Shown: piece by piece, positions 6,230 through 62,780 of the stretch
How positions within the stretch are numbered: the first letter of the stretch is position 1
How the letters are laid out: each line of letters opens with the position of its first letter
From: Candidatus Omnitrophota bacterium
GTDB taxonomy: Bacteria > Omnitrophota > Gorgyraeia > Gygaellales > Profunditerraquicolaceae
Length of the DNA stretch: 64,000 nt
Reading direction: 5' to 3'
Assembly: GCA_011620275.1 (NCBI GenBank)
Contig: WOZK01000012.1
Coordinates: forward strand, 31,665 to 95,664
Notes under the pieces: generated by a model
The model's database searches: none
What the model saw: the letters and a program-made list of their open reading frames with translations, nothing else
What the model was told of the DNA's origin: nothing
Made by a program: the position numbers and the translations under genes

Positions 6230-9200
6230 TTATTCCTTTACGGTTTCTTCTGCGGCAACAGGCTCTGCGGCCTCCACAGGCACGGCATCTGCTGACTTTT
6301 GTATTTTTATTTCCCGGTGGGTATGGAATCCCGTTCCTGCCGGGATCAAATGTCCCACGATAACGTTCTCTTTCAGACCGAACAGATCGTCTTTCTTACC
6401 GGCAGCCGCGGCCTCGGTCAGGACGCGAGTGGTCTCCTGGAAGCTTGCCGCGGATATGAAACTGTCCGTAGTCAGCGAAGCCTTGGTGATGCCCAGCAGC
6501 AGCGGAGTCGCCGAGGCCGGTTTGCCGCCCTTTTTCAGCACTTCCGCGTTAGCCTGCCTGAATGTCCACTTGTCCACCTGCTGCCCCACCAGGAACTCGC
6601 TGTCCCCGGGATTTTCTATACGGACCTTCTTAAGCATCTGCCTGATGATAACTTCAATATGCTTGTCGTTTATGCGTACGCCCTGCAGGCGGTAAACCTC
6701 CTGTATCTCGTTTACCAGGTACTCCTGCAGCACCTTGTCGCCGCAGACACGCAGGATGTCCTGCAGGACCACCGGTCCGTCGGTGAGCTGCTGACCGGCC
6801 GCGACCTTGTCCGCCTTGTAAACGTTGGGGTGTTTCCCGTGCGGGATGGCATACTCCCTTGACATCCCTGTCGGGGACTTGACGACAATCACCCTCTGGC
6901 CTTTTTTCGTCTCACCAAATTCTATGAACCCGTCGATCTCGCTGATAACGGCCGGGTCTTTCGGCCTTCTGGCCTCGAACAGCTCCGCCACGCGCGGCAA
7001 ACCGCCGGTGATGTCCCTGGTCTTGACGACCAATCTGGGTATCTTGGCCAGCATGTCTCCGGCGTCGACCGTCTGGCCGTCCTTGACCAGTATATGCGCT
7101 CCGACGCTGATCGGGTATATGCCCATCACCTCGCCGGCCGCGCTTGCTATGACGATCTGCGGATGGAACTCCTGCTTGTGCTCGACCACTATGCGTTCGG
7201 TCAACTTTGTGACCGGATTAAGTTCTTCCTGTATGGTCTGGCCTTCCTTGATATCCTCGTATTTTACTTTACCGCCGACCTCGGTAAGGATCGGGATCGT
7301 ATACGGGTCCCAGCGCACGAAAGCCACGCCCTTGTTGATCTCCGCCCCATCGGCCACGCTGATGAAAGCCCCCTGAGGAACGGTATAGCGTTCTAACTCC
7401 CTGCCCTGTTCGTCGTTGATGCTGATGCTTCCGTTCCTGTTGAGTACCACGAACTCCTTGTTCTTGTCGGTGACGCGCAGGCCGTGATACTTTACCATGC
7501 CCTTGTTCTTGGACTTGTAGAGCGACTGCTCTACGGTCCTGGACGCCGTGCCTCCTATATGGAACGTTCTCATCGTCAACTGCGTGCCCGGCTCGCCGAT
7601 ACTCTGCGCGGCCACGACACCCACGGCGTCTCCGATTTCGACCAGCCTTCCGCTGGCGAGGTTGCGGCCGTAGCACTTTGAGCAAACTCCCCTGCCGGAT
7701 TCGCATGTAAGAACGCTGCGGATACGTATGCGCTCTATGCCGAGCCTCTCGATCATCTCCGCCTTCTCCTCCGTGATCTCCAAGCCCTGCTCGACGATGA
7801 CCTCGTCGGTGATGATGTCCACGATGTTATCGAGCGCGACTCGCCCGGCGATGCGGTCCTTGAGGCTGACCACCACTTCGTCGCCCTCGATGATTGCCGA
7901 GACGGTAATCCCGTTAAGAGTGCCGCAGTCATCCTCCTCGATAATCACCTCCTGCGCAACATCCACCAGCCTCCTGGTAAGGTATCCGGCGTCGGCCGTC
8001 TTCAAGGCCGTGTCGGCGAGGCCTTTCCTTGCGCCGTGCGTAGAGATAAAATACTCGAGAACCGTCAACCCCTCGCGAAAATTGGCGGTAATCGGGTTCT
8101 CGATGATCTCGCCGGAAGGCTTGGCCATCAGACCTCGCATGCCGGCAAGCTGCCTGACTTGCAGTTTAGAACCGCGAGCCCCGGAATCGGCCATGATGAA
8201 AATCGGATTAAATTTCGGCATCTCTTTGAAAAGAAGGTCGGATATCTTATCGGTTGTATGCGTCCAGATATCGATAACCTTGCTCTTGCGTTCCCTGTCG
8301 GTAATAATACCCCGGCGGTACTGTTCTTCAACTTTGGAGACCTCCGCTCTGGATTCCTTGAGCACGTCCTGTTTCTCTTTCGGGACCAGCAGGTCGTCCA
8401 TACCTATGGATATCCCGCCCAGGGTCGCGTAAATAAACCCGAGCTTCTTGCTCTCGTCGACCAGCTGGATGGTACGCTGGTGGCCGTAACGCTTATAGCA
8501 GACGGCGACTATGTTGCCTACCAGGCCCTTATTCAACTCCTTATTGACGAATCCGAAATCGGACGGCAGTAAACGGTTAAAAATGACCCTGCCGGGAGTG
8601 GTCTCTATGATCTGCCTGCCGTCGATCCTGTTGCCTTCGGCAATGTCCATTACCTGGTCGACGCGCAGCCTGATCTTGGCGTGCAGATCCGCTTCCTTGT
8701 CCTCATAGGCGGTTATTACCTCGGAAGCGTCGGCGAAAATACGGTTCTCCCCCTTGCCGCCCTCTTTCATTTTGGTCAGGTAGGAAACGCCGAGAATGAT
8801 GTCCTGCGTAGGAGAAATTATCGGCCGGCCGTCGGCGGGCGAAAAAAGGTTGTTCACCGACATCATCAGCACCCGGACCTCGATCTGGGCTTCGAGAGAT
8901 AGCGGCACGTGAACGGCCATCTGGTCTCCGTCGAAGTCGGCGTTGAACGCAGTACAAACGAGAGGATGTATCTTTATCGCCTTACCCTCGATAAGCACCG
9001 GCTGAAAAGCCTGAATGCTCAGTCTGTGCAACGTCGGCGCGCGGTTGAGCATTACCGGATGGTCTTTAATGACCTCATCCAGTATATCCCACACCTCTAT
9101 CTTGCCGCGCTCCACCATGCGGCGCGCGCCCTTGATGGTATGCACGAAACCCTTCTCACGGAGCTTCTTTATGATGAACGGTTCAAAAAGTTCCAGCGCC

Positions 9201-17096: not shown

Positions 17097-17270
17097 TGTT
17101 TTTTTAATAAAATTTAATCAAACCGCAGAAATCCCCGGTTTTTTCAAGAGGGATTTTTCCGGCATCTTACGACACGGAGTTAATCAAGGAAGAAAACCCG
17201 GGCGCATGTCCTGAGCAGTTCGACAGGCTCACTACTGAAGCCCGTCGAAGGATCAGCCCGGAGAGCTTCA

Positions 17271-28120: not shown

Positions 28121-28914
28121 CTGTTCCTCCTTTTCACGCTCTGCCGGAGATCCTCCGGCATATTCTCCGTAAACGGTAAAACCCTGCCGCCTGCGGCCCG
28201 AATCGCCTGCCGCATAGTGAACTTTTTTTCGTAGATCGCCTTACCGGTAATGATCCCGCTCAATCCCTTATCCTCAAGCCCGCAAAGCTCTCTTATATCC
28301 CGCAGGCTGGATATACCGCCGGAAGCGATAACGCGCATCCCGCTTTCCCTAAGGAGTTTCCTGACCGCCGGAACGTTCGGCCCCTTCAGGGTGCCGTCCC
28401 TTAATGTGTCGGTATAGATCATCTCGCTGAAACCTGTTCTCTTGAGCGAACGCGCGAAATCAGCCGCATCAAGCCCGCTGTGGCTTTCCACCCATCCTTT
28501 TACCATAATCCTGCCGTTTGCGGCGTCCACGCTGATGATCACCCGCTCCCCGAATTTCCCGTAGGCTTTCTCAAGGAAAACGCGGTCTTCCACCGCCCTG
28601 GTACCGAGAATGACCCTGCTTATACCGGCGTCCAGAACCCGCCCGATCGCCTGCAATGTCCGTATACCGCCTCCGAGTTGCACTGGGATACCGGCCGCCC
28701 TGGCTATTTTAGCGGCGAGCGAAAGATTGCTCTGCCTGCCGCTTTTTGCGCCGTCGAGGTCCACGACATGTATCATTCGCGCCCCCTGCGCGGCCCATTC
28801 GACCGCCACCGCTACCGCGTCACGCGAATACTCCTTGCTGCGGCAAAACTCGCCCTTCACCAGCCGCACCACGCGGCCGCCCTGCAGGTCTATAGCCGGA
28901 AATATGTCCACCAT
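28111..28914 (-). CDS. hisA: 1-(5-phosphoribosyl)-5-[(5-phosphoribosylamino)methylideneamino]imidazole-4-carboxamide isomerase
   Basis: MVDIFPAIDLQGGRVVRLVKG; (beta/alpha)8 HisA family. Confidence 0.92.
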   Translation of the reverse strand: MVDIFPAIDLQGGRVVRLVKGEFCRSKEYSRDAVAVAVEWAAQGARMIHVVDLDGAKSGRQSNLSLAAKIARAAGIPVQLGGGIRTLQAIGRVLDAGISRVILGTRAVEDRVFLEKAYGKFGERVIISVDAANGRIMVKGWVESHSGLDAADFARSLKRTGFSEMIYTDTLRDGTLKGPNVPAVRKLLRESGMRVIASGGISSLRDIRELCGLEDKGLSGIITGKAIYEKKFTMRQAIRAAGGRVLPFTENMPEDLRQSVKRRNRCG

Positions 28915-29522
28915 CAGTTAAGCGCGATGAAATTCTGCAGTATACGCAGGCCTGCCCCCTGGCTTTTTTCCGGATGGAACTGCACTGCGTACACGTTGTC
29001 TTTCCAGGCAACGGATGTGAAATCTATCCCGTATTCCGTTAGCCCGGCGGAAACCGAGACTTCACGCGGCGACGCGTAATAGGAATGGCAGAAATAGACA
29101 TATTCGCCGTCTTCTATCCCTCGCAGAAGCGGACAGTCGCGGCCGGAAACGCCGAGTCTTAACCTGTTCCAGCCCATATGCGGAACCTTTAGCCCGCCGC
29201 GGAATTTCAGCACCCTGCCGTCCAAAACACCAAGTCCCTTGTGCGAGGAGGCTTCTTCACTTTCGCAAAAAAGTACCTGCATCCCCAAACAGATACCGAG
29301 AATAATCTTGCCGGAAGCCGCCTGTTTTTTCAAAAGCACGGCGCCGCCGCGGTCCAGATACTCCATTGCGTCATCGAAAGCTCCGACGCCGGGAAGCACG
29401 ATCTTATCCGCAGCAGAAAGTTCATCTTCTTTACAGGTCAAAACGGTCCGCGCGCCAAGATTTTCCAGCGCCTTGCGCACGCTGTGTATGTTCCCGATCC
29501 CGTAATCGAATATCGCTATCAT
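28914..29522 (-). CDS. hisH: imidazole glycerol phosphate synthase glutamine amidotransferase subunit
   Basis: MIAIFDYGIGNIHSV..GICLGMQ..HPE class-I GATase triad. Confidence 0.93.
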   Translation of the reverse strand: MIAIFDYGIGNIHSVRKALENLGARTVLTCKEDELSAADKIVLPGVGAFDDAMEYLDRGGAVLLKKQAASGKIILGICLGMQVLFCESEEASSHKGLGVLDGRVLKFRGGLKVPHMGWNRLRLGVSGRDCPLLRGIEDGEYVYFCHSYYASPREVSVSAGLTEYGIDFTSVAWKDNVYAVQFHPEKSQGAGLRILQNFIALN

Positions 29523-29545
29523 GCCTTCCTTAAAAACTCGTCAGA

Positions 29546-29745
29546 CGGTTACGGTAACGAAACCCGTTTCGCTTCCCGGTCACGGTTACCAACAAGACCC
29601 GACCTATCTTTCCTCCCCTCGATGAGGAGGATTAAGGAGGGATGGCAATCAATGCGCTGTTTGACAAGTTTTTTACAGCGCACTGTGTCCGCCGCTGAAG
29701 CGCCGGCGAGACTAAAACAAGGGTATCGTAACCGTTACCGACAGA
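29546..29745. repeat. conserved ~200-bp non-coding element, copy 1, immediately upstream of hisH
   Basis: Blocks shared with 51233-51462: CGGTTACGGTAACGAAA, GTTTTTTA(A)ACAGC(G/A)CAC(T)GTGTCCGCC, ACTAAAACAAGG and GACGAT; element ends ~20 nt before the hisH ATG. Confidence 0.7.
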
Positions 29746-29748
29746 CGA

Positions 29749-30345
29749 TTAATCAATCACTCCCTTACTGGAAGGAACACCCTTCCTGCGCGGGTCGATT
29801 TCCACAGCAGAACGCAAAGCCAACCCCAGCGCCTTGAACGCCGGTTCGAGCGTGCTATGCAAGTCGCTGCCGGCACCGTTTATCTTCACGTGCAGATTCA
29901 TACCTAACTGTTTGGCGAAGGCGTCCAGAAAATGCTCCGCGTCACCGACACCATAGCCCTCGCTGCCTTCCGGCTTTAGCCCCTGGGGGGAAATAATTTT
30001 AAAATACCCGCGGCCGCAGATATCTGCGGCGACGTCGGCCGACGCTTCCTCCATAGGAACCGAAGCCCACCCTATGCGCCTGATGCCGCATTTATCGCCC
30101 AACGCTTCCTTGAAAGCCTTGCCCAGCGCGATGCCGACATCTTCGTTAGTATGGTGTATATCGACCTTGAAATCGCCTTTAGCCGATATCTCCAGGTCGA
30201 ACATCCCCCAGAACGAAAACAACTCCAGAAGGTGGTTCAGCAATCCTATACCGGTCTCTATTTTGCTTTCGCCGGAGCCGTCTATCTCCAGTTTAAGACC
30301 GATATCGGTTTCCTTCGTGGTCCTTTTGATTTCCGCATTACGCAT
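29749..30345 (-). CDS. hisB: imidazoleglycerol-phosphate dehydratase
   Basis: 198 aa; IGPD family sequence containing HHTNEDVGIALG. Confidence 0.92.
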   Translation of the reverse strand: MRNAEIKRTTKETDIGLKLEIDGSGESKIETGIGLLNHLLELFSFWGMFDLEISAKGDFKVDIHHTNEDVGIALGKAFKEALGDKCGIRRIGWASVPMEEASADVAADICGRGYFKIISPQGLKPEGSEGYGVGDAEHFLDAFAKQLGMNLHVKINGAGSDLHSTLEPAFKALGLALRSAVEIDPRRKGVPSSKGVID

Positions 30346-34223: not shown

Positions 34224-34743
34224 ATTCGTCCCCGGCGGCATGGCCGCCAAAAAATCTCTCCGTCACATTTGCTACAACCCCGGGGCAGAAACCGCGCCGC
34301 GATAAAAAAGCGAACAGCCGGCGTTTCAGTTTCAGCTTCTCGCCGCCGCGCAGCAGCGAACGTTTCCTGGAGATAACAAGCTCTATAGCCGCCTTTTCCT
34401 CTGAATAACCGCCTGCCAGGAGCCTGTCAAGCGCCCTCTCCGCCAAAATCCGCTCCACGCCTTTAGAAGACAGTTCCCTGCCTATGCGTGAAAGGCCGTA
34501 GGAACGCGCCGCCCTGCTCTGCGCCCAGGCGCGTGCGAAAGACGCGTCATCCAGGAATTTCTTGTCCTGCAGAAAAGAAATCGTATCCGCAACGGCGGCC
34601 GGAGAAAAACCTTTCTTCTGCAGCCGGAATTCCATTTCCCGCACGCTGCGCGGCCTGAACTTCAATAAGAGAAAGGCGTACCGCAGAGCTTCAACCAGGC
34701 CGCCTTCTACCGGATCCCTCTTCTTTAACACTTGGCTTTCCAA
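34213..34743 (-). CDS. recX: recombination regulator RecX
   Basis: 176 aa; three-repeat helical RecX fold; downstream of recA; the ORF-track start is TTG at 34741-34743 and the true start is uncertain (GTG at 34729 is possible). Confidence 0.75.
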   Translation of the reverse strand: MESQVLKKRDPVEGGLVEALRYAFLLLKFRPRSVREMEFRLQKKGFSPAAVADTISFLQDKKFLDDASFARAWAQSRAARSYGLSRIGRELSSKGVERILAERALDRLLAGGYSEEKAAIELVISRKRSLLRGGEKLKLKRRLFAFLSRRGFCPGVVANVTERFFGGHAAGDEYED

Positions 34744-34860
34744 TTAGCCAAAGTATAACGCACGAGCGAATACTTGGCACTCCGATTAGCCAAGGTATAA
34801 CGCACGAGCGAATACTTGGCTTTCCAATTAGCCAAGGTATTATTTCGATAGGCTAAGGTA
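34727..34860. repeat. tandem array of ~42-bp hairpin-forming repeats (about 3.5 units) between recA and recX
   Basis: Unit AGCCAAGGTATAACGCACGAGCGAATACTTGGCTTTCCAATT with internal inverted repeat GCCAAGGTAT/ATACTTGGC; a related copy lies at 62561-62607. Confidence 0.8.
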
Positions 34861-34966
34861 AACCCGGCTCGAAAGCCGCGGATTTCTGCGGTTTGATGAA
34901 GATGGATTCCAGCGGTCATTTAAGCGGATTTTAAATACGGAAAAAGAACCGGGGACGACCTGCGCG

Positions 34967-47577: not shown

Positions 47578-48474
47578 TCACCTGCCTTTTACGGCCGCCG
47601 GGATGAATTCCATGCTGATGTCCGCCGATTTAACGTTATGGGTGAGCGCTCCCACGGAGATGATATCCGCGCCGGCGGCGGCGTAAGCGCGAATATTGGA
47701 AAGAGTGATGCCTCCAGACACCTCCAGCAAAGGAACGCGCCGTTCCGCCTTGCCGCGCAGCCGCACCGCTTTACGGATATCGACGGGCTTCATATTATCG
47801 AGCATAATGATGTCCGGCTTAAGCGAAAGCGCCATGCGGAAGTCATCCAGGTTCTCTACTTCTATCTCTATCTTCATCTTTCCGTGCGGGAACCTGTTCC
47901 TTAGCTTTGAGAACGCGCGGCTCAAATAAAGGTGTTTGCCGCTTTTCGGGCAGGCCGCCAGATGATTGTCCTTTACCAGCACCATTTCATCCAGGCAGCT
48001 GCGGTGGTTATCCGCCCCTCCCGTACGCACGGCGTATTTCTGCAAGGAGCGCAAACCGGGGAAAGTCTTGCGCGTATCCACCACTTTGACGCCGTAGGAT
48101 TTCACTTTGTCGGCGTAAGCGCGAGCCTGAGTGGCTATCCCGGAAAGCATCCCTACGAAATTTATAGCGACACGCTCTCCTTTTAGCAGTGAACGCGCCT
48201 TTCCGCTCACGCGTGCCAGTTCTGCGCCGCGTCGGACTTTTTCGCCTTCTCTGCGCAGCTTCCTAAAGGAGACTTTTTCGTCAACCTGCCTGAATACCTC
48301 GGCGGCGATGTCCAGACCGCAGACCACCATCTCCCGGACGGCGATGAAAGAAGCCGAAGCTGAACAGCCTCCGGGCACGAAAAAATCCGTGGTGACGTCA
48401 CCGCTGCCGATATCCTCGCGCAGCGCCTGCGACACTATCCTGCCGTATTCTATATTATTTCCGCAATTCTTCAT
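47578..48474 (-). CDS. nadC: nicotinate-nucleotide diphosphorylase (carboxylating)
   Basis: 298 aa; quinolinate PRTase family with MLDNM motif and C-terminal SVGALTHNV. Confidence 0.88.
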   Translation of the reverse strand: MKNCGNNIEYGRIVSQALREDIGSGDVTTDFFVPGGCSASASFIAVREMVVCGLDIAAEVFRQVDEKVSFRKLRREGEKVRRGAELARVSGKARSLLKGERVAINFVGMLSGIATQARAYADKVKSYGVKVVDTRKTFPGLRSLQKYAVRTGGADNHRSCLDEMVLVKDNHLAACPKSGKHLYLSRAFSKLRNRFPHGKMKIEIEVENLDDFRMALSLKPDIIMLDNMKPVDIRKAVRLRGKAERRVPLLEVSGGITLSNIRAYAAAGADIISVGALTHNVKSADISMEFIPAAVKGR

Positions 48475-51205
48475 ATATTCCGCGGTACCTTTCCAGGGTC
48501 TCTTTCAACTCCCGCAGTCTATCTTTCTCTTTATCCACAATTTCCCCGGGGGCTTTGTCTGCGAAACCAGGTTTTGCCAGCATAGCTTCCTTGCCGCGGA
48601 TCGCCCCGGATGTATTATCAATTTTAACGCGGAGTTTTTCCCTTTGCGCCGCGATATCCACTATACCTACGAGCAAAACGCTCACATGCATACCCCCGGC
48701 TACTGCGGCAACCGAAGACGGTTTATGATTGTACCCTTTCTCAATGCCAAGAACGGATATTCTCGCCAGACGGCGTATGACCGCGGAAAGCGGCTTCAGC
48801 GCCTCTGCCTGCGCCTTTGAAGAAGCAGCTATGACCGCGGGTACCTCCTTCTGCGGCGGAATGTCGAGTTCCTGACGGATGTTGCGCACAGCGGCGATCA
48901 CGGCAAAGATATCCTCCATGAAAGTCTCCGCCTTGCGGTCCTGGCGCAAATCCTTGTGTGCCGGCCAGGCGCGCGTCATAACTGAATCGCCCACGTGCGG
49001 AAGTTTCTGCCAAATCTCCTCGGTGATAAACGGCATGAAAGGATGCAAGGCGGCCAGGAAGTTCTCCAGCACACGCAGCATCACCGACTGGTTCTGCCGA
49101 TCCTTCATATCAAGCTTGATTATCTCCAGGTACCAGTCGCAGTATTCCTTCCAGAAAAAAGAATACAGCAGGTTGGCCGCCTCGTTGAAGCGGAAAGCGG
49201 AGAGCGAGGCATCGGTTTTCTTCAGGGTGACGGAAAGCCTGCTCAATATCCATCGGTTGACCGCGCTTAAATCCTTTTCAGAAGAAACGGCGGACGCCTC
49301 AACCGCCCCTGTTCCCGGCTCAAGGTTCATCATCACCAGGCGCGAGGCGTTCCATATCTTGTTGGCGAAATTTCTGCCCTGCTCGAACCTCTCCCTGGAA
49401 AGATAAACGTCCTGCCCTTGGGCTGTGATGGCGATCAGGCTGAAACGCAGGGCGTCGGTGCCGTATTGCGAAATTATTTCCAGCGGGTCGATGCTGTTTC
49501 CCAGGGATTTGGACATCTTCCTGCCGTCCTTATCCCTGACCGTGCCGTGTATATAGACGTCCCTGAACGGTATGTCCCCCATGAACTCAAACCCGGCCAT
49601 AATCATGCGCGCCACCCAGAAAAAGATGATCTCAGAGGCGGTGGTCAGGGTATCGGTGGGATAGAAATACGCCAGTTCTTTCTTTTTCTTCTTCTCTTCT
49701 TTTCCCTGCCCGAACGGCCAGCCGAAAGTGGCGAACGGCCAGAGCCAAGAAGAAAACCAGGTGTCAAGCACATCCTCATCCTGACGCAGCTGCGCGTTTC
49801 CGCAGACCGGGCATTTCTCCGGTTTAGTCCCGGATACAATGACCCCCTCTTCCTCATTATTTTTCCGGCCGGAATCTCTGTCCGCGCGCGATGGACTATC
49901 GGCTGTGGATTGTTCCTGCCGCCTAAGGCAGCTGTCGCAGTAATAAACCGGCAGTCGGTGCCCCCACCAGATCTGCCGTGAGATACACCAATCCTGAATG
50001 TTCTCCATCCAGTTCAGATAGACCTTGGTCCAGCGCTTCGGATAAAACTTGATTCTACCCTTTTTCACCGCTTCTATGGCAGGCAAAGAAAGCGGCTTCA
50101 TCTTCACGAACCACTGCCTGGAAAGATACGGTTCGATTATGGTGTGGCAGCGATAACAGTGCCCGGCGGAAAGCTTATGCGGTTCTATCTTCTCCAGCAG
50201 GCCTTTTTCCTTCATATCTTCCAGCACGACTTCCCTGGCCTCAAACCTGTCCATCCCGGAATACTCTCCGGCAAGGTCGTTCATCCTGCCGTCCGGGTGC
50301 ATCACGTTGATGAATTGCAGTCCGTGCTTTCTGCCCATACGGTAATCGTTGGGATCGTGCGCCGGGGTGACCTTGACCGCTCCGGTACCGAAGCCGGCGT
50401 CCACTTCCGAATCGGCGATAATCTTTATCTCTCTGCCGGCCAAAGGCAGCAACAGCGTTTTTCCGACGAGTTTCTTATAGCGCCTGTCATTTGGATTGAC
50501 CGCGACCGCGGTATCGCCGAGCATGGTCTCCGGCCTGGTAGTGGCAACCGTCACGGACCGCGAAGGGTCGTCCTTCAAGGGATATTTGAGATAATAAAGA
50601 TGCGCGTCCAGCTCATGGTGCGGGGCCTCTTCGTCTGCGAGGGCGGTCTGGCATCGCGGGCACCAGTTGATAATGTATTCGCCGCGGTAAACAAGGCCTT
50701 TTTCGTAAAGCCGGATGAAGACCTCCGTGACCGCCCTGGAATATCCCTCATCCATGGTGAACCGCGCGCGCGTCCAGTCACAGGATGCGCCGAGTTTCCT
50801 GAGCTGTTTTATAATAGTTGAGCCGTACTGTTCCTTCCACTGCCAGACGCGCTCCAGAAATTTCTCGCGGCCAAGGTCCTGCCTGCGCAGTCCTTCCTTC
50901 ATCAGCATCTTCTCCACCACGTTCTGGGTGGCGATGCCGGCGTGGTCTGTCCCGGGCATCCAGAGGCTCGACTTCCCTTTCATACGCTGCTGCCGGATAA
51001 GTATATCCTGAATGGTATCGTTGAGGGCGTGCCCCATATGCAGAATACCAGTGACATTGGGAGGAGGAATAACGATGGAAAAAGGTTTCTTCCCGGAATC
51101 CGCCGAAACCCCGAAATAACCATTATCTTCCCAGAACTTATACCATTTGTCCTCGGTATCCGCGGGATTGTAATGAGTGGGTATCTCGTTTATATTTTCT
51201 TCCAT
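48455..51205 (-). CDS. valS: valine--tRNA ligase
   Basis: 916 aa; HMGH (HIGH-type) and KMSKS class I motifs, CP1 editing domain and C-terminal coiled coil. Confidence 0.96.
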   Translation of the reverse strand: MEENINEIPTHYNPADTEDKWYKFWEDNGYFGVSADSGKKPFSIVIPPPNVTGILHMGHALNDTIQDILIRQQRMKGKSSLWMPGTDHAGIATQNVVEKMLMKEGLRRQDLGREKFLERVWQWKEQYGSTIIKQLRKLGASCDWTRARFTMDEGYSRAVTEVFIRLYEKGLVYRGEYIINWCPRCQTALADEEAPHHELDAHLYYLKYPLKDDPSRSVTVATTRPETMLGDTAVAVNPNDRRYKKLVGKTLLLPLAGREIKIIADSEVDAGFGTGAVKVTPAHDPNDYRMGRKHGLQFINVMHPDGRMNDLAGEYSGMDRFEAREVVLEDMKEKGLLEKIEPHKLSAGHCYRCHTIIEPYLSRQWFVKMKPLSLPAIEAVKKGRIKFYPKRWTKVYLNWMENIQDWCISRQIWWGHRLPVYYCDSCLRRQEQSTADSPSRADRDSGRKNNEEEGVIVSGTKPEKCPVCGNAQLRQDEDVLDTWFSSWLWPFATFGWPFGQGKEEKKKKKELAYFYPTDTLTTASEIIFFWVARMIMAGFEFMGDIPFRDVYIHGTVRDKDGRKMSKSLGNSIDPLEIISQYGTDALRFSLIAITAQGQDVYLSRERFEQGRNFANKIWNASRLVMMNLEPGTGAVEASAVSSEKDLSAVNRWILSRLSVTLKKTDASLSAFRFNEAANLLYSFFWKEYCDWYLEIIKLDMKDRQNQSVMLRVLENFLAALHPFMPFITEEIWQKLPHVGDSVMTRAWPAHKDLRQDRKAETFMEDIFAVIAAVRNIRQELDIPPQKEVPAVIAASSKAQAEALKPLSAVIRRLARISVLGIEKGYNHKPSSVAAVAGGMHVSVLLVGIVDIAAQREKLRVKIDNTSGAIRGKEAMLAKPGFADKAPGEIVDKEKDRLRELKETLERYRGIYEELRK

Positions 51206-51232: not shown

Positions 51233-51462
51233 CGGTTACGGTAACGAAAGACGATTGACGATACGGGCATCGTAACCGGGAAACGATAGACGAGTTTTAA
51301 TATCGGTAACGGTTACGGATATAGTCAACCGATCTTCCCTCTCTAATAGCGTACTTCTCCCCAGTTCAGTAAGTTTTTTAAACAGCACACTTTGTCCGCC
51401 ATTGAATCGTTGACGACACTAAAACAAGGACAGCGCAACCGAAAGACGATATAAACAACCGG
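51233..51462. repeat. conserved ~230-bp non-coding element, copy 2, immediately upstream of valS
   Basis: Homologous to 29546-29745; begins with CGGTTACGGTAACGAAA about 27 nt before the valS ATG and contains additional CGGTAACGGTTACG and CGTAACCGG motifs. Confidence 0.7.
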
Positions 51463-51485: not shown

Positions 51486-53063
51486 TTAACCGCGGGAGGA
51501 TCTATCCTTAAGCAGTTTATATTCCACGCTGTCCGACAAAGCCTGCCAGGAGGCCTCGATTATGTTCTCTGAAACGCCGATCGTATTCCAGGTATCCCCG
51601 GCGTCCTGCGACTGTATAAGAACGCGCACCTTGGCGGCGGTACCGTCTTTTTCATTAAGCACGCGCACCTTGAAATCGCTCAAGTGCATGCGCGCAAGAT
51701 CGGGATAGAAATCCCGAAGCGCCTTGCGCAGGGCGTTATCCAGGGCGTTGACCGGGCCGTCGCCCTCGGCTGCGGTATACTCCCGGGAACCCTTGACTTT
51801 TATCTTTATAATCGCCTCGGTGGTTATTTTTCCATCCTGCCTGCGCTCCACCACCACCCTGAAACCCTCCAACTCGAAGAATTTCTCGTGTTTCTTTATT
51901 TCCCTCTGCAGCAGCAGCTCGAAAGAGGCTTCCGCGGCCTCGAACTGGTATCCTTTATGCTCCAGTTCCTGGACCAGTTTAAGTAACTTCTTCGTCTTGG
52001 GGTCGTTTTTGGTCAAGTCCATTTCCAGGTCGCGGGCGCGCAGCAATATCCCGGTCTTTCCCCCGAGCTCCGAAAGCAGCATCCTGCGCCTGTTCCCGAC
52101 GAGCGCCGGATCGATGTGCTCGTAAGTAGCGCAGTTTTTCATCACCGCGTTAATGTGCACCCCGCCCTTGTGCGCGAACGCCGAGATTCCGCTGTAAGGC
52201 TGGTCGTTCCTGATCGTCATATTGCTGATCTCGCTGACAAAATGAGACAATCTGGTCAGTCCCTTCAATTTATCGGCGGGAAGACAGCGCACTCCCATTT
52301 TCAACTGCAGATTAGCGATAATCGGGATAAGATCGGCGTTGCCGCAGCGCTCGCCGTAACCGTTTATAGTCCCCTGCGCCATAACCGCTCCCGCTTCCAC
52401 CGCGGCCAAGGAATTGGCCACCGCCAACCCCCCGTCATTATGACAATGTATTCCGATATCGGCCTTCAACAGTGATTTCACTTCCTTAACCACGCGCAAG
52501 ACCTCCGAAGAGAGCGTTCCACCGTTGGTATCGCAGAGCACCAGCACGGAGGCGCCGGCATCTCTGGCGGTCAACAGGCACTGCAATGCGTAATCGCGGT
52601 TGGCTTTGTAGGCGTCAAAGAAATGTTCCGCGTCATAAAAAACGGCCAAGCCTTTGCCGCGCAGAAAAGACACCGAATCCCTGATCATGGATAGATTCTC
52701 TTCCGGCGTTGTCTTCAGCACGTCTCTGATGTGCAGGTCCCAGGTCTTACCGAACAGCGCGGCGCAGGAAACACCGCTCTTGAGGAACGCCTTGAGGTTG
52801 GCGTCCTGCGATGCCTTTATGCCCGGCCGGCGGGTGGAGCCGAAAGCCACCAGTTCCGCGCAGGCAAGTCTGCGTTTAGACATCTTCAAAAAAAACTCCA
52901 TGTCCTTGGGATTGGACCCCGGCCAGCCTCCTTCGATATAATGGATGCCCGCCTTATCCAGTTCCATGGCGATGGCGAGTTTATCAGAAACGGTGTAGGA
53001 AATACCTTCCCCCTGAGACCCATCCCGCAAAGTAGTGTCGTAAACAGCCACGCTGTTCTTCAT
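51486..53063 (-). CDS. citramalate synthase / 2-isopropylmalate synthase family enzyme (CimA-like)
   Basis: 525 aa; DRE-TIM YDTTLRDGSQ N-terminus and C-terminal LeuA-dimer regulatory domain; long CimA-type size; lies in a threonine/isoleucine gene block. Confidence 0.65.
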   Translation of the reverse strand: MKNSVAVYDTTLRDGSQGEGISYTVSDKLAIAMELDKAGIHYIEGGWPGSNPKDMEFFLKMSKRRLACAELVAFGSTRRPGIKASQDANLKAFLKSGVSCAALFGKTWDLHIRDVLKTTPEENLSMIRDSVSFLRGKGLAVFYDAEHFFDAYKANRDYALQCLLTARDAGASVLVLCDTNGGTLSSEVLRVVKEVKSLLKADIGIHCHNDGGLAVANSLAAVEAGAVMAQGTINGYGERCGNADLIPIIANLQLKMGVRCLPADKLKGLTRLSHFVSEISNMTIRNDQPYSGISAFAHKGGVHINAVMKNCATYEHIDPALVGNRRRMLLSELGGKTGILLRARDLEMDLTKNDPKTKKLLKLVQELEHKGYQFEAAEASFELLLQREIKKHEKFFELEGFRVVVERRQDGKITTEAIIKIKVKGSREYTAAEGDGPVNALDNALRKALRDFYPDLARMHLSDFKVRVLNEKDGTAAKVRVLIQSQDAGDTWNTIGVSENIIEASWQALSDSVEYKLLKDRSSRG

Positions 53064-61440: not shown

Positions 61441-61484
61441 GGATAAAACCAGTGTTCTTACTACCCCGGGACTGCGATTTCAAG

Positions 61485-61521
61485 AGCGAGAGAGGGGAAT
61501 CGAACCCCCGTATATAGCTTG
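61485..61521 (-). pseudogene. partial tRNA-Gly copy (3' half only)
   Basis: 39 nt (61483-61521) identical to 61695-61733 of the intact tRNA-Gly (acceptor 3' strand, T-arm, 3' anticodon stem), then divergent sequence. Confidence 0.7.
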
Positions 61522-61696
61522 TCCCGCCTTCTTTTTAACCTTTGACTAAAATGCCGCGGGATTTCGCTATATAAAAGCTTTCTGTGCTCAAGAAAGCTAT
61601 TGTTCTCTTTCAAATCTATCTCTGAACATCAAGAAACTTGTCTCGTGGCCTTATTCTCTAATTGCCTGCGAGATTTCGTTCCCTGTTCAATCTCAG

Positions 61697-61767
61697 AGCG
61701 AGAGAGGGGAATCGAACCCCCGTATATAGCTTGGAAGGCTATTGTTCTACCATTGAACTACTCTCGC
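61697..61767 (-). tRNA. tRNA-Gly (anticodon TCC)
   Basis: GCGAGAGTAGTTCAATGGTAGAAC..anticodon loop CUUCCAA..GGGGGTTCGATTCCCCT..CTCTCGC. Confidence 0.85.
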
Positions 61768-61856
61768 AAATAATGCGTCTTTAAGGTGCTTGTCCCGCCT
61801 CCTATACAACTACTCTTTGAGACGGGATTTCGTTCAGCCTTCGGCCGAACTCAAGA

Positions 61857-61888
61857 AGGTTATTGTTCTACCATTGAACTACTCTCGC
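61857..61888 (-). pseudogene. partial tRNA-Gly copy (5' half only)
   Basis: 31 of 32 nt identical to the 5' half (acceptor and D-arm) of the intact tRNA-Gly; diverges at the anticodon loop into a GTTCGGCC-GAAG-GCTGAAC hairpin. Confidence 0.65.
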
Positions 61889-61973
61889 GAATCGCATCAA
61901 TCTGCAAAACTATCCTGCTCATTATATCTAATTTCGCAGGATTTCATTCTATACTTTTCTTGTTGAATTTAAA

Positions 61974-62560: not shown

Positions 62561-62607
62561 CGCACAAGCGAATACTTGGCCTTCCTATTGGCCAAGGTAT
62601 AACCAAG
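62561..62607. repeat. isolated copy of the 42-bp hairpin repeat family seen at 34727-34860
   Basis: CGCACAAGCGAATACTTGGCCTTCCTATTGGCCAAGGTATAACC: the tail of one unit plus the head of the next. Confidence 0.7.
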
Positions 62608-62780
62608 CTTGAAAACTTAGGGGTTTTTGCGTAGGAGAATAAATATACCAGAACTTTCCAAGGGTGTAAAGAAAGATTTTGCGGATATGTGCGGATAGAC
62701 AGTTAGAAACGAGGAATTATCATATAATTAAGTATTGTGTCCCCGGAATGCGAAATGCAGAACCCGTTTTAAAAGAAAAA

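Follow-up and report, generated by a model that had tools for sequence, protein, structure and literature searches.

Among the closest described counterparts of the element reported here are BIMEs, REP clusters and REPINs, which occur in Enterobacteria and Pseudomonas and are mobilised by RAYT tyrosine transposases. They are intergenic, non-coding mosaics of short GC-rich imperfect palindromes, tandem arrays included; inverted pairs of units give a larger hairpin, many lie between co-directional genes of an operon, and turnover is rapid. All of this is shared by the element analysed here, for which a tandem array was found at locus L042. The differences are in the details: its end units are repeats of a CGGTWAC hexamer and not a hairpin of 20–40 nt, TTAG or TCAG adjoins the GGCGG stems where a GTAG tag would be expected, no RAYT gene was found in the window or the related loci, and there is no sequence similarity to the known families.

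A second group comprises Correia/NEMIS of Neisseria and ERIC/IRU of enterobacteria. Here the likeness includes a length of about 100–200 bp, terminal inverted repeats of about 25–30 bp, a long stem-loop when co-transcribed, the occurrence of full-length next to internally deleted or expanded variants, and a position near gene starts. However, the sequences are unrelated and the hosts belong to another phylum. Correia elements are further distinguished by a TA target duplication and by defined IHF and promoter motifs, none of which could be demonstrated at our loci.

Two additional systems deserve a comparison. T-box leaders resemble the two window copies only in genomic setting, one preceding an aminoacyl-tRNA synthetase gene and the other an amino-acid biosynthesis gene; T-box sequence, specifier/antiterminator architecture, terminator and conservation at orthologous positions are all lacking. 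Di Nocera et al. (2013, PMC3733652) described CGTC-tagged REP families with an 8–9-bp stem, a 4–5-nt loop and a CCA tail, which mostly form head-to-head dimers and have no dedicated transposase. CGTC does start both outer ends of the inverted repeat described below (ATCGTCTG... and ...CAGACGAG), but only a 4-bp stem is possible after the tag, which departs from the geometry of these families; membership is not supported.

The element was detected in a window of 64,000 nt, which HisH and ValS homologues place in Candidatus Omnitrophota. Its two copies there lie upstream of hisH and valS, and we consider it likely that they belong to a lineage-specific, non-coding, mosaic palindromic repeat of MITE/BIME-like type in a genus-level Omnitrophota group. 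We infer the repeat to be non-autonomous. Omnitrophota are an uncultured phylum whose genomes are almost all MAGs. A full-text literature search returned no paper linking them with REP, REPIN, RAYT or MITE, and this is apparently the first documentation of a mosaic palindromic repeat family in the phylum. Such repeats break assemblies, mimic structured RNAs in comparative screens and can serve to mark strain-level genome dynamics.

Two related spacers in one window

All genes concerned are encoded on the minus strand. A 226-nt gap separates hisB from hisH within a hisD-hisB-hisH operon, and a 280-nt gap separates a LeuA-like gene from valS. The initial annotation had reported that the two gaps share sequence blocks, which holds: BLASTN aligns a 71-nt block, 29666–29734 with 51371–51441, at 79% identity (E 2e-11), CGGTTACGGTAACG(AAA) is found exactly at 29546 and 51233, the same two positions carry an exact common 17-mer, CGGTTACGGTAACGAAA, and GACTAAAACAAGG/CACTAAAACAAGG lie at 29710 and 51417. 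Allowing two mismatches, CGGTTACGGTAACG(AAA) has five matches in the window against 0.47 expected by chance, four of them within the two gaps. GGTWAC hexamers cluster in these gaps only and occur elsewhere in the window at background frequency. BLASTN of each gap against the window, together with a self-comparison of the window, revealed no third copy. Relative to the gene downstream, the two copies are oriented alike, as first described, and 14–27 nt separate their ends from its ATG.

Table 1. Features of the two element copies and their flanking genes; positions refer to the window.
Feature	Position	Strand	Remarks
hisH	28914-29522	-	Pfam GATase
hisB-hisH copy, full extent	29537..29749	-	bounded by terminal inverted repeats
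3' arm of terminal inverted repeat, GGGTTTCGTTACCGTAACCGTCTGACGAG	29537..29565	-	holds a 17-mer exactly matching the valS copy
extra internal module, about 85 nt	29568..29652	-	has a CCTCC...GGAGG hairpin and an additional GGTAACC unit; missing in L041, whose element otherwise matches
hairpin GCGCTGT-N14-ACAGCGC	29650..29685	-	A-rich loop; inverted repeat I5, 11 nt, 91%
REP-like hairpin unit TTTAGTCTCGCCGGCGCTTCAGCGGCGGACACA	29684..29716	-	stem GTC.CGCC/GGCG.GAC; recurs in the valS copy, L020, L015, L038, L041, L042
5' arm of terminal inverted repeat (gene direction), ATCGTCTGTCGGTAACGGTTACGATACCCT	about 29720..29749	-	matches the reverse-complemented 3' arm at 23/29 positions
hisB	29749-30345	-	Pfam IGPD
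valS	48455-51205	-	ValS homologues
valS-upstream copy	51233..51452	-	composite, degraded
3'-arm 17-mer TTTCGTTACCGTAACCG, valS copy	51233..51249	-	exact match in the hisB-hisH copy
second 5'-arm-like fragment TCGTCTATCGTTTCCCGGTTACGATGCCC, inside the valS gap	51258..51293	-	96.6% match to the partial copy of L015
conserved core block, valS copy	51364..51441	-	79% identical to 29666-29734
LeuA-like gene	51486-53063	-	Pfam HMGL-like/LeuA_dimer

The hisB-hisH copy is where it was first placed, but its inverted repeats show it to be slightly longer than first thought (Table 1). On one side it abuts the hisB stop codon (29749–29751). On the other, 14 nt separate it from the hisH ATG, and the AAGGAAGG ribosome-binding site follows directly after its end. 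The terminal inverted repeats (29537–29565 and 29721–29749) are 29 nt long, imperfect and composed of CGGTWAC hexamers (arms ATCGTCTGTCGGTAACGGTTACG / CGTTACCGTAACCG). Each end of the element carries an 11-bp perfect palindrome of GTWAC half-sites (GTTAC-N-GTAAC / GTAAC-N-GTTAC). The arms were also found at L038, L039, L041 and L042.

Two hairpins between the arms recur across copies, GCGCTGT/ACAGCGC (29650–29685) and GTCTCGCC/GGCGGAC (29684–29716); the stem CAGCG-N12-CGCTG proposed in the initial annotation is not retained in the valS copy. The GCGCTGT/ACAGCGC hairpin is present in L020, L015 and L041, half gone in the valS copy and missing from L038, L039 and L040. The REP-like unit forms a tandem array of five units of 28–29 nt in L042. 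In one unit of L015, GTTTTACC..GGGTAAAA replaces GTCTCGCC..GGCGGAC, with changes on both sides that preserve the pairing, so it is the palindromy itself that is maintained, as in REPs. Modules similar to the extra internal one are present in L020 and, in L038, ahead of recA.

The hisB-hisH copy folds strongly on either strand: the minus strand reaches −95.1 kcal/mol (z −5.9 vs shuffles) and the plus strand −85.4 kcal/mol (z −5.7), and both predicted folds are a long hairpin closed by pairing of the two ends. A DNA palindrome would give just such symmetry. The ribosome-binding site of hisH, which is not part of the element, stays unpaired in the prediction. A promoter and terminator scan of both strands yielded no such site in this copy.

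Other candidate features of the hisB-hisH copy were considered. A sigma-70 promoter in the core was not recovered by the promoter scan, and for a sigma-54 promoter the GG/GC spacing proved off by one on reading. As for a small ORF or leader peptide, one hand-traced frame across the 3' end of the copy is closed by stops and has no start codon.

The valS copy has a different make-up. In this copy a 5' arm is followed by the REP-like hairpin and one half of the second hairpin; then come unrelated filler, another piece resembling the 5' arm, and lastly the 3' arm. The second 5'-arm-like fragment marks it as nested or composite. It folds no better than shuffles (z −0.65), and scans of the valS gap gave no terminator-like site and three weak promoter-like matches (9/12), where about one is expected by chance. 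The valS copy is a composite, decayed element.

Gain, loss and rebuilding of copies between related genomes

Relatives' loci were found as contigs with close HisH and ValS homologues (L038, L042, L043). An exact look-up of the HisH protein encoded in the window gave no match; its ValS is on record. Both L038 and L042/L043 are syntenic with the window at about 78–82% nucleotide identity, and the closest relative with a long contig has a ValS that is 83% identical. At valS the 280 nt of the window stand against a 19-nt spacer in L042/L043. The reverse is seen at two other sites. Upstream of recA, L038 carries an element while the window has about 40 nt and none; a promoter, TTGACA-N17-TATAAT, lies downstream of the L038 element and is conserved in both. 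Upstream of the H+-pyrophosphatase (H+-PPase) gene, a 444-nt stretch of L042 with the 5' arm, inverted arm units and the five tandem GTCTCGCC..GGCGGAC units has no counterpart in the window, which is contiguous there. L043 has a further copy before a pilin-like gene. The hisB-hisH gap is the sole site occupied in both the window and a syntenic relative.

Even this site is far from constant. Over HisH identities of 85–100% the gap takes five different architectures, in all of which the end motifs are kept. The window (100%) holds the full element with the extra internal module; L041 (98%) has a compact form of about 130 nt in which the 85-nt CCTCC module is missing and the 5' side bears a different additional module; in L040 (94%) the second hairpin is missing and a further conserved motif directly precedes the ATG; L039 (87%) is reduced to the arms and a short interior in a 135-nt gap; and L038 (85%) is another variant. 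The core of about 70 nt is missing from three of the five. Fold significance varies as well, with z −3.9 for L041, −5.45 for L039 and +0.3 for L040, whose fold is lost. At L045, from a more distant member of Omnitrophota (HisH 62%) in which the alaS-hisD-hisB-hisH synteny is shared, an unrelated sequence of 86 nt fills the gap, and at L046 ruvC is followed by hisH after 19 nt. Copies have thus been gained, lost and rebuilt in the spacers of co-directional genes between genomes of about 78–82% nucleotide identity.

Elements of about 130–260 nt also occur outside these syntenic loci. In L020 (Omnitrophota MAG JBAZDY01) a full element occupies the spacer from nusB to a PHP-domain gene. L015 (Ca. 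Undivivens industriae), likewise an Omnitrophota MAG, has one flanked by phoU and a YgjP-like gene, and a partial copy there adjoins a TolC-like (OEP) gene in opposite orientation. Besides these, the density amounts to two copies in the 64-kb window and at least four in the relative, over about 45 kb (L038, L042, L043). At seven of eight independent loci the copy runs in the same direction as the flanking genes (binomial p about 0.07). The core of about 70 nt is 86–90% identical among the Omnitrophota MAGs, which probably represent different genera, as no NCBI-sourced HisH or ValS match besides the window's own exceeds 62–67%. A tblastx comparison of L015 and L020 with the window and L038 found no genes in common.

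How widely the element is spread was approached by pattern scans. Among species-representative genomes (596 Gb) the pattern ACAGCNCACTNTGTCCGCC, with 17 specified bases and by estimate about 70 chance matches on both strands, returned 36 matches, and only two of these, L015 and L020, were similar beyond the pattern. A metagenome scan with a 22-base gapped pattern gave a single locus, L037, with the same element region and local matches as L015. At 85–90% identity between copies such exact patterns miss most of them, and the counts are uninformative on copy number. Plasmid records and viral contigs contained no matches to the element. Contig ends agree with a repeat: one Logan contig, whose ValS is 100% identical, terminates within the element, and two short ENA contigs begin at it or within about 40 nt.

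These observations carry the assignment. In line with a MITE, there are terminal inverted repeats (29-nt arms, 23 of 29 positions matching), a small element that is non-coding as far as one hand-traced frame tells, several dispersed copies, and insertion polymorphism at valS, recA and H+-PPase. In line with REPs, BIMEs and REPINs, short imperfect palindromes form mosaic clusters, and every locus combines the modules in its own way. A small MITE-like mobile element had been one of the options of the initial annotation, and it was essentially right: inverted repeats, dispersed copies and filled and empty orthologous sites all agree with it, though no target-site duplication emerged. Three filled/empty sites and the hisB-hisH copy show no unambiguous direct repeat, their flanks being too diverged or remodelled, and the sole candidate is a weak CCGGTT(G)TTT at valS. 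Neither a transposase nor an autonomous parent element appears in the gene tables and ORF list for the window and about 80 kb of related loci.

A complete unit would then consist of a 25–30-nt imperfect terminal inverted repeat of CGGTWAC hexamers around variable interior hairpin modules (GTCTCGCC..GGCGGAC, GCGCTGT..ACAGCGC and CCTCC..GGAGG). Its movement or copying may depend on a DDE or tyrosine transposase that is encoded elsewhere and acts in trans, or it may spread by recombination between copies. The location within operons makes co-transcription probable, and the mRNA of an intact copy would then contain a very stable stem-loop. To judge from REP/BIME, ERIC and Correia elements, any effect of this stem-loop might at most be a generic one on mRNA decay, processing or translational coupling. 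The position next to hisH and valS would simply reflect where insertions are tolerated.

Alternative readings of the element

Not every observation points to free mobility. A core that stays 86–90% identical across probable genera could mean functional constraint, and the prevailing co-orientation hints at selection or at a strand-specific mechanism. Together with the two-sided, pairing-preserving changes in one hairpin unit, these features are the grounds for another view: a REPIN-like, long-lived and vertically inherited system of Omnitrophota, with the core of about 70 nt selected as RNA or single-stranded DNA, a single-copy transposase, and maybe exaptation as an operon-internal element for mRNA stability or processing. 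We regard this as unlikely, though it is the most credible of the alternatives to a MITE/BIME-like repeat.

Less probable still is a role as clustered target sites of a DNA-binding protein, be it a transcription factor or a nucleoid-associated protein, that recognises the GTTAC-N-GTAAC / GTAAC-N-GTTAC palindromes. The perfect half-site palindrome at each end and the confinement of GGTWAC clusters to the two gaps speak for such sites, and there is precedent, as IHF, gyrase and Pol I bind REP/BIME elements (background in PMC2817692). But the sites are not conserved at orthologous promoters, one copy is internal to an operon and not at a promoter, and the recA promoter downstream of the L038 element is conserved with or without it. 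A cluster of transcription-factor sites, which the initial annotation had also considered, is not gene-specific. Binding by a general host protein would in any case be compatible with the repeat-element reading and not an alternative to it.

The idea that the element is a cis-regulatory RNA leader controlling hisH and valS, either T-box-like or a new sensor of amino acids or tRNA, is scarcely credible, although it headed the options of the initial annotation. Both copies of the window lie immediately 5' of an amino-acid-related gene in the same orientation, and the predicted fold of the hisB-hisH copy is very stable. Against this, the valS copy folds like shuffled sequence and its site is empty in the nearest relative, and in the hisB-hisH gap the interior is replaced or deleted at 85–98% HisH identity, to the point that one variant has lost its fold, while the gap of L045 is unrelated altogether. 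Absence of the element from orthologous loci, which the initial annotation had itself named among its grounds for refutation, therefore refutes this reading. Other copies lie next to unrelated genes, namely recA, H+-PPase, PHP, YgjP-like, PhoU, TolC-like and pilin-like ones.

Known RNA families give the same answer. Rfam 15 at the gathering threshold reports only tRNAs in the window, and even at a permissive E≤10 the two gaps have only chance matches to unrelated families and no T-box. When held against a T-box, the element has no match to the covariance model (T-box sequence, stem I, antiterminator), no leader conserved at orthologous loci (valS in L042/L043 and hisB-hisH in L045 being the cases in point) and no expression platform, as terminator-like sites are missing from both copies and the predicted fold does not sequester the ribosome-binding site of hisH. 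That both strands fold equally well is the behaviour of a DNA palindrome. The element does not sense tRNA or amino acids, and a false lead is thereby removed: there is no new leader of this kind at hisH or valS.

A multicopy small-RNA gene or antisense RNA in the gaps, for which the core identity across different Omnitrophota MAGs might be cited, is extremely improbable given that no sigma-70-like promoter or intrinsic terminator lies in or beside the hisB-hisH core on either strand, that the valS gap is without a terminator-like site and has promoter-like matches that are weak, that the core is absent from three of five hisB-hisH variants, and that Rfam gives no match.

Other repeats and motifs in the same genomes

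Several additional repeats were seen in passing. In L042/L043 (17798–18013) five hairpin units of 28–29 nt (AGTCTCGCC-N-TYAGTGGCGGRC) adjoin element arms and resemble a REP cluster, and the orthologous site of the window is without them. L042 and L043 encode an identical ValS protein and diverge fully upstream of about position 2180 (positions 1–2180), where one contig carries thyA/PilZ/gpsA and the other, which begins with an element copy, has pilin and T2SS-like genes. This is a strain-level rearrangement, possibly at repeats.

The alaS-hisD gap of the distant L045 (247–465) contains its own, unrelated palindromic sequence of about 48 nt, AGAGACGATTTACGTTGTTAGAAGCACAACGTAAATCGTGGACTCACT, twice; separate Omnitrophota lineages appear to hold separate palindromic repeat families.

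A motif of 23–25 nt, (G)AATTAAGTATTGTGTCCCCGGAAT, is nearly exact in the window (62726–62749) and three Omnitrophota loci: L015 (1156–1180, 7191–7213), L020 (606–625, 3082–3104) and L040 (133–155). It occurs in both orientations and is not palindromic. Often it lies 12–40 nt before a start codon, as for hisH (L040), the YgjP-like gene (L015), and PHP and ribBA (L020), and sometimes it adjoins the repeat element or faces the 3' end of a gene. No match was found in viral contigs. This sequence might represent a promoter or leader motif, or else the terminus of a different element.

A unit of about 42 nt (TATACCTTGGCTAATYGGARNGCCAAGTATTCGCTCGTGCGT) occurs three to four times in tandem in the recA-recX gap of the window (34727–34880), with another copy at 62561–62603 near the tRNA cluster and a part of the unit, GTATTCGCTCGTGCG, recurring in L015 (7287–7303). 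These units form a second intergenic repeat family. Furthermore, TTTTTCCGGYATCTTACGACACGG and a palindrome GTCCTGAGC..GTCGAAGGA(C) are common to intergenic regions of different genomes, at 17149–17265 in the window, at 2215–2250 and about 18040–18075 in L042, and at 7313–7348 in L015. The genomes behind the window, L042 and L015 carry several small repeat families.

Finally, the tRNA cluster of the window (61483–61892) contains duplications of 38–39 nt: 61483–61521 is an exact match to 61695–61733, and 61734–61771 is about 95% identical to 61855–61892. These are probably related tRNA genes or spacers.
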